The translations under genes were made by a program, and so were the position numbers. From a virus, in IMG/VR virus record IMGVR_UViG_3300000944_000003, positions 1 through 35,055 of that record: a DNA stretch of 35,055 nt; one strand, written 5' to 3'. Below the pieces are notes generated by a model that saw nothing but the letters and a program-made list of their open reading frames with translations, did not search any database and was not told the origin of the DNA. Below, in pieces: positions 50-35,055 of this stretch (positions are counted from its first letter, which is position 1; each line of letters starts with the position of its first letter).

Positions 50-194
50 TGTGGTTGAAGCCGAGCCTGGCTTTGGGACCAGCATCTGGAGGATGCGGCT
101 CGGCGTCTGCATCATAGCGATTATCTTTAATAAACAAAAGCTCAAGTTTTTTAAAATTGTGCCGATAAGTAATACATAACTTGGAGGGGATCAT

Positions 195-1933: not shown

Positions 1934-1949
1934 GAAATTATACGTAAAT
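1934..1949 (-). promoter_or_regulatory. Conserved 16-bp motif, copy C (ATTTACGTATAATTTC on the - strand), about 110 nt upstream of the subtilase start
   Basis: 15/16 identical to copy B (5512-5527) and 13/16 identical to copy A (4720-4735). It contains TATAAT, with TTCAAA 18 nt upstream on the - strand, so it could be a promoter or operator. Confidence 0.5.
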
Positions 1950-3419: not shown

Positions 3420-4676
3420 CTACATATTGTTCGCGATCATAGTTGCCTTCGGCGTTTTACCACGATGAAGGCGAACGTCAAATAATTCGGCGACTTCTTT
3501 TTGCATGGCATGAAGTTCATTTGCTCTTTTTGGGCTCGAGTAAAGATCGATTACGATCATCGGACCGCCATGATTTAGCGCCAGGTTGGAATCCGAGGAG
3601 TCTGAGAGGTATCTACAGCCAATAAAGCACTCGAATACGCCGGGATATACAGCCGCTTCAAGCGCGATAATGAACTTGATTATCTCTTTGAAATCTTTTG
3701 GTTTAACCGCGAAGGCTACATTATGGGACCTAAAAGTAGGCTTCATCGCCCACAGCTTTAGGCTAATCTTAGATCGCATCTCATTTGAACCATCGAAGTC
3801 TAATCCTTTTTCTTCATGATAGAGAAAATCTAGATCGAACTTTGAGGCTATCACCTTCCATGGCTCCAGCCTCGCCATCCCGATTATCTTCTGCAATAGG
3901 CTTCGCAATGCAGGAACCGCTGAGTCCAGGAACCAGTAAGATCTAATTATTTGCCATTTGAAAGGTAATGTAAACTTAAAAAACTTGGCTGGCCGGCCAG
4001 AAAGCACGTTAAAAGGTATGGGCTTTACGAAATTAATTAGAACTGCAGGATCTTTTCCAGAGTATGGAAGTATCTGAAAACTCATAGCCCGATCTTTTCC
4101 CATATCAAGATTTAGATCTGATAGTTTGCAGGCACAGTGTTCAATCATGTGAGCTGTAAGTGGTGCGGTCTTTATAAGAACTTCTGTGACCACGATCATG
4201 TGCTCGATGCCATGAGAGCCTTCGGCTTCAATATATTCTGGCTCTGAATCAGCTCCAATTAAAAATCCTTTGAATCCTAAAACCTGGTCAATCATCGAAG
4301 CAGATTTCCCGTATCCGTGGGTTCCTGTAAGGGCCGCACCAACGAAGGTTTGTTTTCTAAAGTTTCCTGAATTTAAAACCCTTCTGCCACCATCTCTAAG
4401 ATTGAGCATGACAGATTCAATGGTTGCCGCGCCGCCTATTCTGGCCATTCCAGTCTCAGGGCAAAGGTAAACGTAGTCGTAGGTTTTGCCGAGCTTAAAT
4501 GAATATGGAGATAAAGCAGCCTCATTGTAGCTATGCAGCGATCCGATAGTCTTTGGATATATGCCTTGCCTGCTCATAGCACTTAAAAGCTCACCAATCT
4601 GACCAGGAGAGTCTAGGATCTTCATTTGGGTTTCTGCCTTGAATACCCCGAGCCAACTTTGAATATTTGTTTTCAT
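3420..4676 (-). CDS. FAD-linked sugar-lactone/alditol oxidase-like protein (FAD_binding_4 + ALO C-terminal domain; GULO/ALO/DprE1 family)
   Basis: N-terminal PCMH-type FAD motifs: PKTIGSLHSYNE (the GxGHS-type site where FAD is histidyl-linked in this family) and GAALTGTHGYGK. The C-terminus (IGCRYLSDS...VRLHRGK) resembles the ALO-domain ending RPHWGK. ATG at 4676 is preferred. The longest ORF starts at TTG 4712 and ATG 4625 is also possible. Confidence 0.85.
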   Translation of the reverse strand: MKTNIQSWLGVFKAETQMKILDSPGQIGELLSAMSRQGIYPKTIGSLHSYNEAALSPYSFKLGKTYDYVYLCPETGMARIGGAATIESVMLNLRDGGRRVLNSGNFRKQTFVGAALTGTHGYGKSASMIDQVLGFKGFLIGADSEPEYIEAEGSHGIEHMIVVTEVLIKTAPLTAHMIEHCACKLSDLNLDMGKDRAMSFQILPYSGKDPAVLINFVKPIPFNVLSGRPAKFFKFTLPFKWQIIRSYWFLDSAVPALRSLLQKIIGMARLEPWKVIASKFDLDFLYHEEKGLDFDGSNEMRSKISLKLWAMKPTFRSHNVAFAVKPKDFKEIIKFIIALEAAVYPGVFECFIGCRYLSDSSDSNLALNHGGPMIVIDLYSSPKRANELHAMQKEVAELFDVRLHRGKTPKATMIANNM

Positions 4677-4719
4677 ATCAGAAAGCCTAGCACTGACCGG
4701 TCGTCCAGCCAATTTGAAT

Positions 4720-4735
4720 ATTTACGTATGAATTT
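4720..4735 (+). promoter_or_regulatory. Conserved 16-bp motif, copy A (ATTTACGTATGAATTT)
   Basis: 14/16 identical to copy B. It lies 8 nt outside the longest version of the oxidase ORF, at the left edge of the ORF-poor divergent region. Confidence 0.5.
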
Positions 4736-5511
4736 AGATTTACTTGGAATGCTTGGCCTGCTTGATGTAAGCCATGTTTAATTTAGGAACCCGAACTTTT
4801 GAGGCTCGAAAAAGTCATGAAAAGTAAGTGGCGACTAAACAATTCAAAATCAACTTTAAAAGGAATCATCTATGCTGAAAGACAAATCAAAAGTCCGGGA
4901 TATAAATACTAAATCTAAAGCCCGGTCTGGTAAAGCAAAATCTATCTTTATTGATTACTTCTCGTTTGTGCCTTGCCCGCCAGCGCTCGTACCGGATCAT
5001 CAGAGAATCGATCTGATCTCAAAGCTAAGGCCCGTAAAATCGAAATCAAACAGCAAATGTCATCCGAGGTTTTAAGCATTGTCTCACGAGGGCACAGCGT
5101 GCCCAAGAGGACTGTTGGATTTAATATCCGCACCTTGAGCATATTACCTAGGATATAACCTAGTAGCTATCGCGCAACCCTCGCACTTGTTGGCATTCCG
5201 CAGGGGGCCTTGTTCCTGCTTAAGGGGTCGGTATACACATTATGGCTAGGTGCTTTGTGAACCTATATGTTTTCAAGCGTTCGCTATAATGCAGCTTCTC
5301 AATTCTAATTGACGGAAGCTCGCCGAGCTATGCCACCACGATGGTAATCGCAAAGCTCCCCCAAAGGCTGATCGTAGACGTGTCCAAGCATTGTTGTCGA
5401 TCAGATGGCTGGGGTTCCATACTCGAGGACATGGCTATATTGCTTCGAGTCCGCTTATGCTGCCACGTGGATATTTTAATCAGCCCAAACCTTTGAGGGA
5501 CGCGAGGTATA

Positions 5512-5527
5512 ATTTACGTATAAATTC
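5512..5527 (+). promoter_or_regulatory. Conserved 16-bp motif, copy B (ATTTACGTATAAATTC), embedded in a perfect inverted repeat AATTTA-N4-TAAATT (5511-5526)
   Basis: Located about 40 nt upstream of the HTH gene start (5568). The palindromic arms suggest an operator for a dimeric DNA-binding protein. Confidence 0.5.
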
Positions 5528-5567
5528 ATTCAGCTTATTGGGCAGGCAAGCTGATACAATCTTGGAT

Positions 5568-5744
5568 ATGGAAACCCTATATCAATTTGAAACCTCATCT
5601 TCTGAGACCGCGGCAATCCTGCTTAGCCTTGAGCTTCCGATATTTGAAATCGTCCGAGACGGGACAATTAGGACCTACAAAGTAAATGGGTTTCACCCGC
5701 CGTCGTGGCTCACTGATGAGGAGCTTGACGAGTGGTTTGACTAG
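5568..5744 (+). CDS. Small helix-turn-helix DNA-binding protein (excisionase/AlpA-like HTH_17 type), 58 aa
   Basis: ETAAILLSLELPIFEIVRDGTIRTYKVNG resembles the HTH_17 pattern (xAAxxLGVSxxTIYRLVRxGxLPxxKxG). It is the first gene of the rightward operon. TACAAT lies 8 nt upstream of the ATG. The 5-prime extension of the tracked ORF (5391..) has a non-coding-like composition. Confidence 0.6.
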   Translation: METLYQFETSSSETAAILLSLELPIFEIVRDGTIRTYKVNGFHPPSWLTDEELDEWFD

Positions 5745-5792
5745 CGGCGCAGGTAGTGGTTATATTCGCCAACGCATTTGGAGGATGACGCT

Positions 5793-6395
5793 ATGGCCGA
5801 TCAAGGCAAATCAATATTTCAACACCTATCAGATATTCAAGGGCTACTGCCTGCATTCAATAAAGACTCGAAAGCCCACAAGTACAATTATGTGTCTTTA
5901 GACAACATAAACGCCGCTCTCAAGCCTCTTCTAGCTGAAAGAGAGCTAAGCCTTACAAGCAGCGTAAGAGGCGAGGTAGGCCTCGATTCGATGTTTCTAA
6001 CAACATGTTTGAGGACCAAGCAGCTGGACTCGGGCAATGAGATTGCCGTGGAGGTTCCTATGATGCTCGGTAGCCTTCGAAACGGAAACGCCATGCAAGA
6101 TATGGGATCTGCGATAACCTACGCCAGAAGGTATGCGCTTTCGATAATGTTCAACCTTGAGACAGAAACAGACGACGATGGCCAAAAGCTTACTCCTCAA
6201 AAGACGGCCGGACGAAAACCCGCACCCGCCAAAAAGAAGATTGATTCAGGCCTTGCCGTATTCCACGTTCACTTTAAAGATCTTTTGGCAAAGTGTGATC
6301 CTTCGAAAAGATCTGAGGCTCTTGCCCTTGCCAAAGATGGCACATCAAAAGACGATCTTAAAAAGGCAATTGAGTTTCTGGAAGTATTGCAATGA
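5793..6395 (+). CDS. erf: ERF-family single-strand annealing recombinase
   Basis: IFQHLSDIQGLLPAFNKDSKAHKYNYVSLDNINAALKPLLAERELSL and GSAITYARRYALSIMF are hallmark ERF motifs. SD GGAGGA (5780-5785) lies 7 nt upstream of ATG 5793. Confidence 0.9.
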   Translation: MADQGKSIFQHLSDIQGLLPAFNKDSKAHKYNYVSLDNINAALKPLLAERELSLTSSVRGEVGLDSMFLTTCLRTKQLDSGNEIAVEVPMMLGSLRNGNAMQDMGSAITYARRYALSIMFNLETETDDDGQKLTPQKTAGRKPAPAKKKIDSGLAVFHVHFKDLLAKCDPSKRSEALALAKDGTSKDDLKKAIEFLEVLQ

Positions 6396-6703
6396 TGGAT
6401 ATAGATAAATCTGATCTGGCTGAATATGCTGTAATGGAAAAAAGGGCAGTCACATTTATGCTTAGCACGATGCTTGAATTTGACGCAGCTTTTGAAGATA
6501 AGATCTTAGGCGATTCGACCCTGGAAAATATGATGAGATCAAAGTCTGTTTTAAAAGACAACCTTGCACCGTTAGTTCCTATTTTTTCTGCTGCATTAAA
6601 GATGAATAAATCTGATATTGATTTCATGATGGAAAAATACGAACCCATAGTTGATAAGATCCTCCTTGAAAGCGAGGAAAATGCAAACCAAACAGTAAAT
6701 TAA
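6392..6703 (+). CDS. Hypothetical protein, 103 aa
   Basis: ATGA overlap with the erf stop. Coding-like acidic, helical composition. No motif recognised. Confidence 0.7.
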   Translation: MMDIDKSDLAEYAVMEKRAVTFMLSTMLEFDAAFEDKILGDSTLENMMRSKSVLKDNLAPLVPIFSAALKMNKSDIDFMMEKYEPIVDKILLESEENANQTVN

Positions 6704-8123: not shown

Positions 8124-8375
8124 TTAGTCTATTTTCTTTTCAATATGTTTTAGTAAAGTCTCTTGCCGCACCAAAATCGCGTTCATCTCTTTAAGCTCTT
8201 CTGAGACCCTTAAAAGAATATCGGCCTGAGCATGGTTTATTTCTTTTTGATGCGAGATCTCTGTCTTAATAATGGCAACTTCTGAGGCGGTCTTAGCCGC
8301 AAACCCAGCGACGCTTATGCAGATCGCAGCGACGAAACCTAAAGGTAAGAATGTGTTTTTAGAGATCGTGTTCAT
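8124..8375 (-). CDS. Bitopic membrane protein with coiled-coil ectodomain (i-spanin-like or holin-regulator-like), 83 aa
   Basis: N-terminal TM (FLPLGFVAAICISVAGFAA) followed by a charged helical region. It is the last gene of the late operon, with an ATGA overlap to RusA. Confidence 0.6.
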   Translation of the reverse strand: MNTISKNTFLPLGFVAAICISVAGFAAKTASEVAIIKTEISHQKEINHAQADILLRVSEELKEMNAILVRQETLLKHIEKKID

Positions 8376-8743
8376 AATTCAGTTAGTTCATACCTTGTAA
8401 AATCATTTTCAGAGTGAACCTTTATGCCGGTTATCTCAAATATATTTTTATCGTCAATGCCAAGAGCGTCAAGAAAAGAGTCTTCTGAAAATTTCAGATA
8501 GTTACTAACATCGGATTTTCTCGGCGAGCCGGATTTTGTTATCCAGCTTTTTCCAATCCAAATTTTTAGCCTTAGCTTTTTAAGATACAATTTAGATGTA
8601 TCAAAAGCCTTTTGCTGTACGTATATTCTAACATTATTTTTGAACGTTTTGACCGCTTTTGTGGAAAATCGCCTTCCATTTCTACCCCGAGAATATCCTG
8701 CATTCACGCTTGGGCATACAAATGGAACTTCAAGGGTAATCAA
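8372..8743 (-). CDS. rusA: RusA-family Holliday junction resolvase
   Basis: VPFVCPSVNAGYSRGRNGRRFSTKAVKTFKNNV resembles the RusA PPSxNxxY...R...S.E motif. DVSNYLKFSEDSFLDALGIDDKNI resembles the RusA D.DN..K...D.L catalytic acidic cluster. Confidence 0.8.
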   Translation of the reverse strand: MITLEVPFVCPSVNAGYSRGRNGRRFSTKAVKTFKNNVRIYVQQKAFDTSKLYLKKLRLKIWIGKSWITKSGSPRKSDVSNYLKFSEDSFLDALGIDDKNIFEITGIKVHSENDFTRYELTEL

Positions 8744-12845: not shown

Positions 12846-13042
12846 TTTACAGTTAGTTTTGTCTCAGTTTCAAAGTAACGAAGATACAAGTTGATCGCAG
12901 CACATACCACGAGTAAAATTGCAGCTTGGTTCTGAGTCAAAAGATCAGCAAATGATGAGCTGAAAATTGCAACTATTGCAACGATTGCGTTGAACCACAT
13001 TGTTTTAGATTCGTTTAATTTCTTAGTTTTTACTTCTGACAT
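12842..13042 (-). CDS. Holin-like protein with two transmembrane segments, 66 aa
   Basis: MWFNAIVAIVAIFSSSFADLL and AAILLVVCAAINLYLRYF are two TM helices in a charged small protein. SD AAGGGA is present. Confidence 0.6.
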   Translation of the reverse strand: MSEVKTKKLNESKTMWFNAIVAIVAIFSSSFADLLTQNQAAILLVVCAAINLYLRYFETETKLTVK

Positions 13043-13055
13043 AACTTTTCCCTTT

Positions 13056-18666: not shown

Positions 18667-19253
18667 CTACCGCCCTTGAATCTTACTATTATTAAGAAGG
18701 GCCTGAATTTTATGGATATCTACAGGCGCTTTCTTATGATTATTTGGATGGGCAATCTTATGGTATCTTTTCATGATCTTTTGCCTGCCCTTCTTATCGG
18801 CATGCCCGAAAGCATGCGCATCTAGTCTGAGCATCTGCTCTTGCGCCTCAATTACATTAGCCGCATCGAGAAGTTCATTTACTTCAGGTATTGTAAGCTC
18901 GCCCGTTTCGCTCCAAGACATTGAAAAGAATCTGGCAAGCCTCGCCCTCTCATTTAAGAAGGGGCTTTGATCTAGCTTTTTTTTTCACCGATGATCTCCG
19001 TGACAAGCTTCATGACCGATCGCGCAGGAAGCTTCGAGATAACTTCTTTTGGCAGACCAGCTTTTTCAATCAAAGAAAGGGATAGCTCCAAATGCTTCTC
19101 GTTTTTCTTTTCAACGTCTTTGATCTCATCTGCTTTTTTCAAAAGGGATAAATACGGCCCTAGCTCTGACATTGATATCCTTGAAAGCGAGTAATTGGAC
19201 TCGCCCCATTTAACATCAAAACTTGCGTCATTACTTAAATCTAAAACGCTCAT
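18667..19253 (-). CDS. Tail assembly chaperone -1 frameshift fusion (GT-like), about 195 aa
   Basis: On the - strand the zero frame reads GGT GAA AAA AAA AGC TAG. A -1 slip on A AAA AAA continues as AAG CTA GAT CAA AGC CCC TTC TTA AAT GAG AGG GCG AGG CTT GCC AGA TTC TTT TCA ATG TCT TGG. No stop intervenes before it joins the 84-aa ORF (18667..18921). Confidence 0.7.
18972..19253 (-). CDS. Tail assembly chaperone (G-like), 93 aa
   Basis: Small acidic protein between the tube protein and the tape measure. It ends at a slippery A-run. Confidence 0.8.
   Translation of the reverse strand: MSVLDLSNDASFDVKWGESNYSLSRISMSELGPYLSLLKKADEIKDVEKKNEKHLELSLSLIEKAGLPKEVISKLPARSVMKLVTEIIGEKKS
18977..18985 (-). 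promoter_or_regulatory. Programmed -1 ribosomal frameshift slippery run (A9 on the coding strand)
   Basis: Nine consecutive T on the + strand (A9 on the - strand) lie 2 nt before the G-like stop codon. The downstream ORF is in the -1 frame. Confidence 0.7.
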
Positions 19254-32396: not shown

Positions 32397-32418
32397 ATTG
32401 ATATGCGAGGATATCAAT
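32397..32418. promoter_or_regulatory. Perfect 8-bp inverted repeat ATTGATAT-N6-ATATCAAT upstream of terL, followed by a second small palindrome TACCA-TC-TGGTA (32422-32433)
   Basis: Read directly from the sequence. It lies 42-63 nt upstream of the terL start in the divergent intergenic region, so it could be an operator, a late-activator site or a packaging-related site. Confidence 0.4.
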
Positions 32419-32593
32419 TTATACCATCTGGTACAATTCTCGGGATACCTATATATCTAAATTTTTCGGATTTATAGGGACATAATTAGTATATATCGAT
32501 AGCGATGTTTGACCATAGAAATATTATAGTGTTATTAATATGTTGGCAGGCCATTTCTTTTCAAAAGAAGTAAGTCGCTGTAGGTGTGTCATG

Positions 32594-32633: not shown

Positions 32634-32696
32634 AAAGCTAAAGTTTTTTTAAGTGTTGCCGATAAGATTTATATAACAACGATCGGATGGACGCTT

Positions 32697-34790: not shown

Positions 34791-35035
34791 TTAGATTTTA
34801 GATCTGACTGAGGCTTTGGTTTTGGACCGGGCTTTGCTTTGGCCTTGGGTTTGGATTTAAGGCTATCTTGGCACTCTCTGAGCTTTAGGATGAGTTCTGC
34901 GAGCTTAAATACCTTGTCGATGTTTCGGCCATGGATGGCGTCTTTTAGCATCGCCTGGCCATATGTGTATGGCTGAAAGCTATTTAGCTCGGCCATTGGC
35001 ATTACAAGTAGTTTGGTCATTAGATCAACATCCAT
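34787..35035 (-). CDS. Hypothetical protein with Lys/Pro-rich tail, 82 aa; start lies inside the terminal repeat
   Basis: ATGA overlap with the ParB-like gene. ATG at 35033-35035 corresponds to positions 27-29 of the left repeat copy. SD AAGGG is found at 36-40 after circularisation. Confidence 0.6.
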   Translation of the reverse strand: MDVDLMTKLLVMPMAELNSFQPYTYGQAMLKDAIHGRNIDKVFKLAELILKLRECQDSLKSKPKAKAKPGPKPKPQSDLKSK

Positions 35036-35055
35036 GAATTAACCCTTTATTATTA
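35007..35055. repeat. Direct terminal repeat, right copy (49 bp, identical to 1..49)
   Basis: Exact identity to bases 1-49. Confidence 0.95.

Follow-up and report, generated by a model that had tools for sequence, protein, structure and literature searches.

A non-coding gap with a sequence-conserved core between divergent operons of an uncultured phage: a candidate replication origin

The IMG/VR virus record IMGVR_UViG_3300000944_000003, analysed here in full as one window of 35,055 bp, is the complete genome of an uncultured phage whose source is an algae metagenome, and DNA of this phage was seen solely in runs from one algae-metagenome sample. Our subject is a gap of 891 bp from which two operons diverge. 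The leftward operon encodes a protein that weakly resembles the FAD_binding_4 family (hereafter the oxidase), an HNH endonuclease, the products of two small genes and an S8 protease, while the rightward operon consists of p58 (5568-5744, 58 amino acids), ERF, a gene for a 103-amino-acid protein, SSB and further small genes. The genome is compact, with about 8% of it intergenic. An original prediction, made from the sequence alone, had drawn the gene-free stretch at 4713-5567; that it is free of genes still stands, while its left edge moves to 4677, since the oxidase frame, which opens at TTG 4712, has its first ATG, and most likely start, at 4676.

The gap is non-coding, in agreement with its earlier description as poor in open reading frames (ORFs). 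A three-periodic Markov model trained on the phage's own genes gave negative scores to all six frames and became positive only from position 5568, and there was no 3-base periodicity (chi2 3.6, p = 0.73, compared with mostly far higher values of 5-98, typically 25-35, in coding pieces of the same length). No Pfam match was found for the 13 stop-to-stop translations of the gap, and no PHROGs match for the three scanned there. A conserved protein in the homologous regions of relatives, which would have meant a missed gene, was also looked for, and none was found. An orphan ORF of 67 codons within the gap (Table 1) is probably not a gene; against 1.84 billion representative proteins it matched itself and two repeat-protein artefacts. 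Elsewhere in the genome, three supposedly intergenic gaps at 18667-18971, 12846-13055 and 1823-2098 do have 3-base periodicity (chi2 p = 0.0002, 0.004 and 0.009, respectively) and may hold missed small genes.

Within the gap lies a core of 0.52 kb that is conserved relative to a sister strain, and that no relative carries. Contigs of three runs were compared over 3900-6400; run X2 contributed short contigs of a variant strain and run X3 gave no cover over that stretch. In the aligned part of the core (4971-5447) there were 8 differences in 477 nt (1.7%), as opposed to 114 in 1358 nt (8.4%) when the flanking genes were pooled (Fisher p = 2.4e-8). When divided into pieces, the flanking genes diverged by 10.7% and 14.5% (oxidase), 8.3% (p58) and 6.1%, 6.7%, 2.5% and 3.4% (ERF). 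The edges of the conserved block are sharp, the left flank being unalignable and the right one heavily diverged: left of 4930 the variant contig has 58 unlike letters that match nothing in the genome, in which the first 19 codons of the 67-codon ORF fall, and to the right of 5447 a stretch of 20 nt has taken up eight substitutions, an insertion and two deletions. Thus, the core is either strongly constrained or recently exchanged.

Most genes of the phage have a GGAGG or AAGGA site, and the first gene of each arm is without a Shine-Dalgarno (SD) sequence. Each of these two SD-less genes is preceded by an extended -10 box (Table 1), and at a third SD-less operon start, ATG 2675 (2675-2690), TGTTAAAAT is found 6 nt upstream. 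The arrangement TGnTAnnnT, 6-8 nt and ATG occurs five times in the genome, and three of the five are exactly at SD-less operon-first genes (ATG 4676, 5568 and 2675); with a chance of 0.0033 per ATG and about 45 gene starts, a Poisson estimate for at least three such cases is ~5e-4. No further extended -10 box was found within 4693-5551. Judging from these boxes, both flanking mRNAs are probably leaderless and start at the ATG, and leaderless mRNAs seem to be the rule in this phage, in view of the three operon-first genes. If both operons have leaderless mRNAs, nearly all of the gap would lie upstream of both, which argues against the suggestion that it is a long leader, as does the position of the -10 box so close to the SD-less ATG 5568. 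The strong GGAGG or AAGGA sites of most genes spoke against promoters of the Bacteroidota type, an idea that was dropped. A back-to-back pair of extended -10 boxes, TGATATCCT (- strand) and TGGTACAAT (+ strand), is also present at 32408-32437, between the terminase gene and a rightward small-gene cassette.

A 15-nt motif, ATTTACGTATRAATT, is present in three copies, all of them intergenic, and none of 100 shuffles reached three, so that the motif is real. Two of the copies, at 4720 and 5512 and both on the + strand, bracket the gap as had been predicted, and the third lies elsewhere (Table 1). Most likely the motif is a regulator-binding or promoter-associated site. Searching viral contigs for the 16-mer of copy B gave 72 single matches, all of them in contigs with no relation to this phage. 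The sequence ATTTACGT at 662-669 was tried as a fourth copy and rejected, being located in a hairpin between convergent genes that is likely a terminator stem; the inverted repeat TTACGTTT ... AAACGTAA that surrounds ATTTACGT there (658-700) is followed by an A/T run and is probably a bidirectional terminator. Another repeated word, the 16-mer AAAGCT[C/A]AAGTTTTTT, is common to two divergent intergenic regions (137-152 and 32634-32649).

Inside the gap, the TATAAT at 5285-5290 and the related GCTATATTGC at 5434-5443 were confirmed. The former is part of a possible internal rightward promoter, TCGCTATAATGCAG, which has a 14-nt twin, TCGCTATGATGCAG, at 107-120 (- strand), ~75 nt upstream of a leftward ParB-like operon across the terminal overlap. 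The twins may represent a shared promoter core, with at least two matches being reached in 12 of 100 shuffles. As to the overlap itself, positions 1-49 and 35007-35055 form an exact 49-bp terminal repeat that resembles the overlap of a circular assembly more than a physical terminal repeat.

Table 1. Features of the gap, and the third copy of the 15-nt motif, in window coordinates
Feature	Coordinates	Strand	Remarks
Non-coding gap, oxidase ATG 4676 (- strand) to p58 ATG 5568 (+ strand)	4677..5567 (891 bp)	none	Six frames non-coding, no periodicity, no family match
Extended -10 box TGCTAGGCT	4684..4692	-	7 nt before SD-less oxidase ATG 4676; proposed leftward leaderless promoter
Motif copy A, ATTTACGTATGAATT	4720..4734	+	Centred ~51 bp upstream of the leftward start
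Segment of the gap richest in AT	4808..4957	none	31% GC; tenth lowest 150-nt window in the genome; left part unalignable in the variant strain
Orphan 67-codon ORF (204 bp)	4872..5075	+	AAGGA ribosome-binding site; coding score -7.6 bits
Core conserved relative to the variant strain (run X2)	4930..5447 (0.52 kb)	none	Eight substitutions and no indel over 4971-5447
TCGCTATAATGCAG, with perfect TATAAT inside (5285-5290)	5281..5294	+	Weakly supported; may be an internal rightward promoter
Best local fold, four consecutive hairpins	5291..5455	+	Includes the last three stems of the original prediction; z = -2.91, minimum free energy (MFE) structure = centroid
Perfect TATAAT overlapping motif copy B	5508..5513	+	GGTATAATTTA kept in the variant's otherwise diverged sequence
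Motif copy B, ATTTACGTATAAATT	5512..5526	+	6-bp inverted repeat AATTTA-cgta-TAAATT; centred ~49 bp upstream of ATG 5568
Extended -10 box TGATACAAT	5552..5560	+	7 nt before SD-less ATG 5568; proposed promoter of a leaderless p58-ERF-SSB mRNA
Motif copy C	1935..1949	-	Intergenic, before the S8 protease gene and in the orientation of that gene

The first gene of the rightward operon, p58, had been labelled a helix-turn-helix (HTH) gene, a label that was not confirmed: p58 had no Pfam or PHROG match, and its homologue search returned itself only. Its single-sequence AlphaFold model, of low confidence (pLDDT, the predicted local distance difference test, 66.6), is mostly strand, with four strands and one helix, and neither shows nor excludes an HTH. 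The gene caller of the source gives p58 as 95 amino acids from ATG 5457, which is 111 nt too early; the variant strain lacks that ATG, and the extension 5457-5567 scores as non-coding.

The base composition is as originally described, with 35% GC at 4721-4780 and 58% at 5161-5220, and over its full length the core has 48.8% GC vs a genome mean of 43.9%, a modest excess only. The six stems listed in the original prediction are likewise all present where it had placed them, but neither the fold of the whole region nor a genome-wide scan bears out its picture of a region packed with hairpins. Folding of the whole region gave z = +0.17 on the + strand and -0.23 on the - strand; in a scan of the genome by 120-nt windows the region had a mean z of -0.05 and the core of -0.54, compared with a genome mean of -0.21, and the core is absent from the 15 most structured segments of the genome, all of which are coding. 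Perfect 6-bp stems were more numerous than in shuffles (11 vs 5.2, p ~0.01; 93rd percentile of the genome), whereas stems of 5 bp and 7 bp were not enriched. A covariance scan of the whole genome with Rfam 15, including GOLLD, ROOL and put as well as group I and II introns, found no family at the gathering threshold, and when E values up to 10 were admitted over 4500-5800 there were four chance matches only, to eukaryotic miRNA, snoRNA and lncRNA models. There is no tRNA in the gap. The compensatory changes that would be expected from a structured RNA did not appear in the variant strain, in whose predicted stems one pair was kept and two were broken. The gap is, then, not a known or clearly structured RNA, and the structured-RNA interpretation finds no support, for want of an Rfam family, a folding excess, covariation or a covariance-model match in relatives.

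The phage is isolated, the nearest ERF homologue being 37% identical and its large-terminase (TerL) relatives 40-59% identical. We collected 85 loci of these relatives (about 1.04-1.07 Mb) and found in them nothing similar to the gap, the 67-codon ORF, p58 or the oxidase by nhmmer, blastn or tblastx; locus searches with ERF or the oxidase as single proteins were empty, and exact words of the core had no matches in viral, metagenome and genome contigs. In relatives at ~50% TerL identity the corresponding junctions are 105, 466 and 645 bp long and unrelated in sequence, and the two longer ones are non-coding. The 466-bp stretch belongs to a relative (L002, 2610-6361; large terminase 50% identical) that is laid out alike, its protease arm running leftward and its ERF-SSB arm rightward, in a module that is inverted relative to the terminase gene. 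A comparison of ORF deserts among the relatives did not tell small-gene clusters and non-coding DNA apart.

What might such a core be doing? Neither a replication initiator nor a helicase, primase or polymerase was detected among the phage proteins by Pfam and PHROGs, as the original prediction had said of the initiator; the only replication-related matches were to ERF, SSB, RusA, HNH nucleases and a ParB-like nuclease. Two of the nuclease genes, for a RusA-type resolvase (8372-8743, Pfam E = 5e-6) and a small HNHc_6-like nuclease (2400-2675, E = 2.5e-6), enlarge the set of recombination genes. We tentatively interpret the core as a non-coding module that acts in cis, and most likely as an origin with a mode of action like that of the origin of lactococcal phage c2. 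Of the readings that are left an origin fits best, on grounds of analogy and exclusion only; it is suggested by the absence of a detectable initiator gene, by the conservation of the core sequence, and by an architecture that is like the c2 origin. In such a scheme, the extended -10 boxes would act as divergent promoters, each 7 nt before an SD-less ATG, and would give rise to leaderless operon mRNAs, with the 15-nt motif, ~50 bp upstream of each start, serving as a regulator or promoter-associated site. Nearly all of the 0.86 kb between the -10 boxes would then lie upstream of both promoters, and the central 0.52 kb (4930-5447), a sequence-constrained cis-acting module, would be the origin from which the phage replicates, fired by host enzymes and possibly aided by transcription entering from a rightward TATAAT box. 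The promoters, the leaderless starts, the origin function and the role of transcription are all proposed here on the strength of sequence features.

The origins of c2 and other Ceduovirus phages are reported to come in three types; identity is >90% inside each type, different types are unrelated, and the origins replicate a plasmid without phage proteins (PMC7150918). A non-coding transcript from the first promoter of c2 (PE1-T) is thought to start replication, and between the promoters c2-type origins have no ORF of at least 100 bp and no ribosome-binding site (PMC7150918). In the c2 record, the origin is a 611-bp intergenic region between the early and late blocks, with two co-oriented early promoters, EP1 and EP2, ~360 bp apart and a divergent late promoter; the GC content of its core is 38-45% and that of its flanks 20-30%, and the folding of its transcript region does not exceed chance (z = -1.08). 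The resemblance to our gap is one of layout, composition and gene content: in both cases non-coding DNA, GC-richer in its core than in its AT-rich flanks and without excess folding energy, lies between divergently transcribed blocks of a phage that has no recognised initiator and that brings recombination proteins, and repeated promoter-like elements in the same orientation stand on either side, facing early recombination/replication genes. The pattern of conservation within a type and unrelatedness between types has its parallel here, the core being conserved relative to the sister strain and the junction DNA of the relatives being unrelated. One suggested likeness, a run of five G and a run of five C (one each), was discarded, since at least two such runs are found in 15% of shuffles of the gap.

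There are also clear differences. The distance between the motif copies is 792 bp here as opposed to ~360 bp between EP1 and EP2. Although co-oriented motif copies do bracket the gap, a credible promoter is found at its right end only (TATAAT 5508 and the -10 box at 5552), and while c2-type origins lack such an ORF, the 204-bp ORF at 4872-5075, with its AAGGA, is inside the gap. In the present gap, replication function and transcription are predicted features. Several observations weigh against an origin. The gap has no sequence similarity to the c2 type, the one compared among the c2, bIL67 and 923 types, the best blastn E being 0.22, and none to phage records and plasmids. Consensus matching identified no counterpart of c2 PE1 (EP1) in the form of a rightward promoter close to motif A, and no consensus promoter follows that copy. 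Iterons and tandem repeats are absent from the gap, where the only tandem-repeat call is a 12-mer in 1.9 copies and the direct repeats are short families of two or three copies, and so is a DnaA box (TTWTNCACA); the AT-rich segment ranks only tenth in AT content within the genome, and GC skew tracks gene strand, providing no independent signal. The conservation was observed in one variant strain, in short contigs from the same sample, and low divergence of the core could come from recent recombination instead of constraint. Such exchange has to be allowed for because the two least diverged ERF pieces (2.5-3.4%) are not significantly more diverged than the core. Origin activity is a prediction by analogy, and the idea that the gap works like the c2 origin is put forward tentatively, with no claim that it belongs to that family.

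Other known systems were also compared. Origins built on iterons or DnaA boxes (lambda ori, theta plasmids, SPP1 oriL/oriR) also have an AT-rich segment beside a GC-richer block near replication or recombination genes, but here there are no iterons, tandem repeats or DnaA boxes, and no initiator gene was detected. A control region of the lambda type (OL/PL, OR/PR) shares with the gap the divergent early promoters, with the same motif at a similar distance from each and several hundred bp between them. In our case, however, no repressor or any other protein can be recognised in the DNA that separates the sites, the motif is single at each promoter and not a triple operator, and no integrase or repressor gene was seen among the proteins scanned. 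Large or regulatory phage RNAs (GOLLD, ROOL, the put antiterminator, c4) are comparable in being large non-coding elements with several hairpins, yet no Rfam model comes near threshold, folding is not in excess and nothing is conserved in relatives. A possible terminal inverted repeat of 9 bp, formed by AAGCAAAAT (4933-4941) and ATATTGCTT (5437-5445) at the two ends of the core, was considered and rejected, as the match is 8/9, the chance ~10%, and there is no target duplication.

For a conserved non-coding core one may also consider that it is transcribed, i.e. that it gives rise to a regulatory small RNA, or to an additional ERF-operon transcript from further upstream, which starts after the TATAAT at 5285-5290 and folds at 5291-5455. 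We regard this as unlikely, but not negligible. The local fold on the + strand, in which the MFE structure and the centroid coincide, is equalled by one of 200 shuffles and is better than that of the - strand (z = -1.61), the TATAAT is directly upstream and has its twin before another operon, the core sequence is highly conserved, and the variant's 5300 C>T turns a C-G pair into a U-G wobble so that pairing is kept. Nevertheless, the boundaries of the fold were picked after the stems had been seen, and on a fixed genome-wide grid 1% of windows, all of them coding, are at z <= -3.2. The gap offers no -35 box, TG extension or terminator for such a transcript, the twin is weak in view of the shuffles, and besides the lack of an Rfam match, a covariance model of 5291-5455 matched itself only, with nothing in the relatives' loci. 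Other changes in the variant go against the stems: 5327 G>A breaks one pair, 5102 C>G breaks the hairpin at 5090-5104, and the deletion at 5448 cuts the fourth stem (the changes at 5409 and 5435 are unpaired). A further explanation, to which we assign a similarly low probability, is that the gap is promoter, operator and spacer DNA only, and that the core is similar in the two strains owing to recent recombinational exchange. Over the 2.5 kb compared, divergence does vary from piece to piece (2.5% to 14.5%) in the manner of mosaic phages, and in two pieces of ERF the strains are as close to each other as in the core. The conserved block is sharply bounded, neither structure nor repeats rise above chance, and relatives at ~50% TerL identity have junctions of unrelated sequence and variable length. 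One would not expect, though, that a phage with so little intergenic DNA retains 0.8 kb of it inert, which compact phages rarely do; exchange would need to have taken in just the non-coding core and to have ended short of both promoter zones, and the relatives, too, keep long non-coding DNA at this junction.

The remaining explanation is cryptic coding in frame +0, the frame of p58, either as a string of small ORFs beginning with the 67-codon ORF and its good ribosome-binding site or as a longer product through four in-frame stops. Of the 236 codons of this frame over 4860-5567 only 4 are stops; each of the other five frames contains 12-14, and the mean in shuffles is 12.4 (the probability that the minimum of six frames is 4 stops or fewer is 0.0225). 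In addition, six of the nine substitutions in the variant are silent in it, including a change of TAA to TGA, where 24% would be expected (a binomial estimate for the frame gives p ~0.008), and the indels at 5448-5460 sum to zero. Depletion of stops and bias towards silent sites are jointly unlikely by chance, and translation of frame +0 would explain both, but they clash with much else. Codon usage in frame +0 (-0.19 bits per codon) equals that of wrong frames (-0.21) and not that of real genes (+0.12), periodicity is lacking, no piece has a family match or a real homologue, and the translation is rich in Cys, His and Arg, like random sequence. Since the stops upstream of p58 (TAA, TGA, TAG, TGA) are of three kinds, no single recoding explains all of them; moreover, T5458C in the variant turns the gene caller's ATG 5457 into ACG, and the silent-site count rests on nine substitutions only. 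Cryptic coding therefore appears improbable, and outright translation of the core despite the four stops, as a coupled chain of micro-ORFs or by read-through into p58, very improbable indeed.

Recombination genes such as ERF, SSB and RusA, but no recognisable initiator, are found in many small phages, and to our knowledge the site and mode of replication start in such phages are mostly unknown outside the lactococcal c2 group. The gap provides a bounded candidate for such a site, namely the sharply delimited conserved core of 0.52 kb, and the two proposed promoters on either side of it are open to mapping. Should it be only a recently exchanged spacer, the finding would be an ordinary one. The leaderless design with extended -10 boxes, proposed at three operon starts, would be a useful annotation rule for this phage group, and if the core is indeed an origin, the host-dependent design of c2 would extend to an unrelated lineage of environmental phages.

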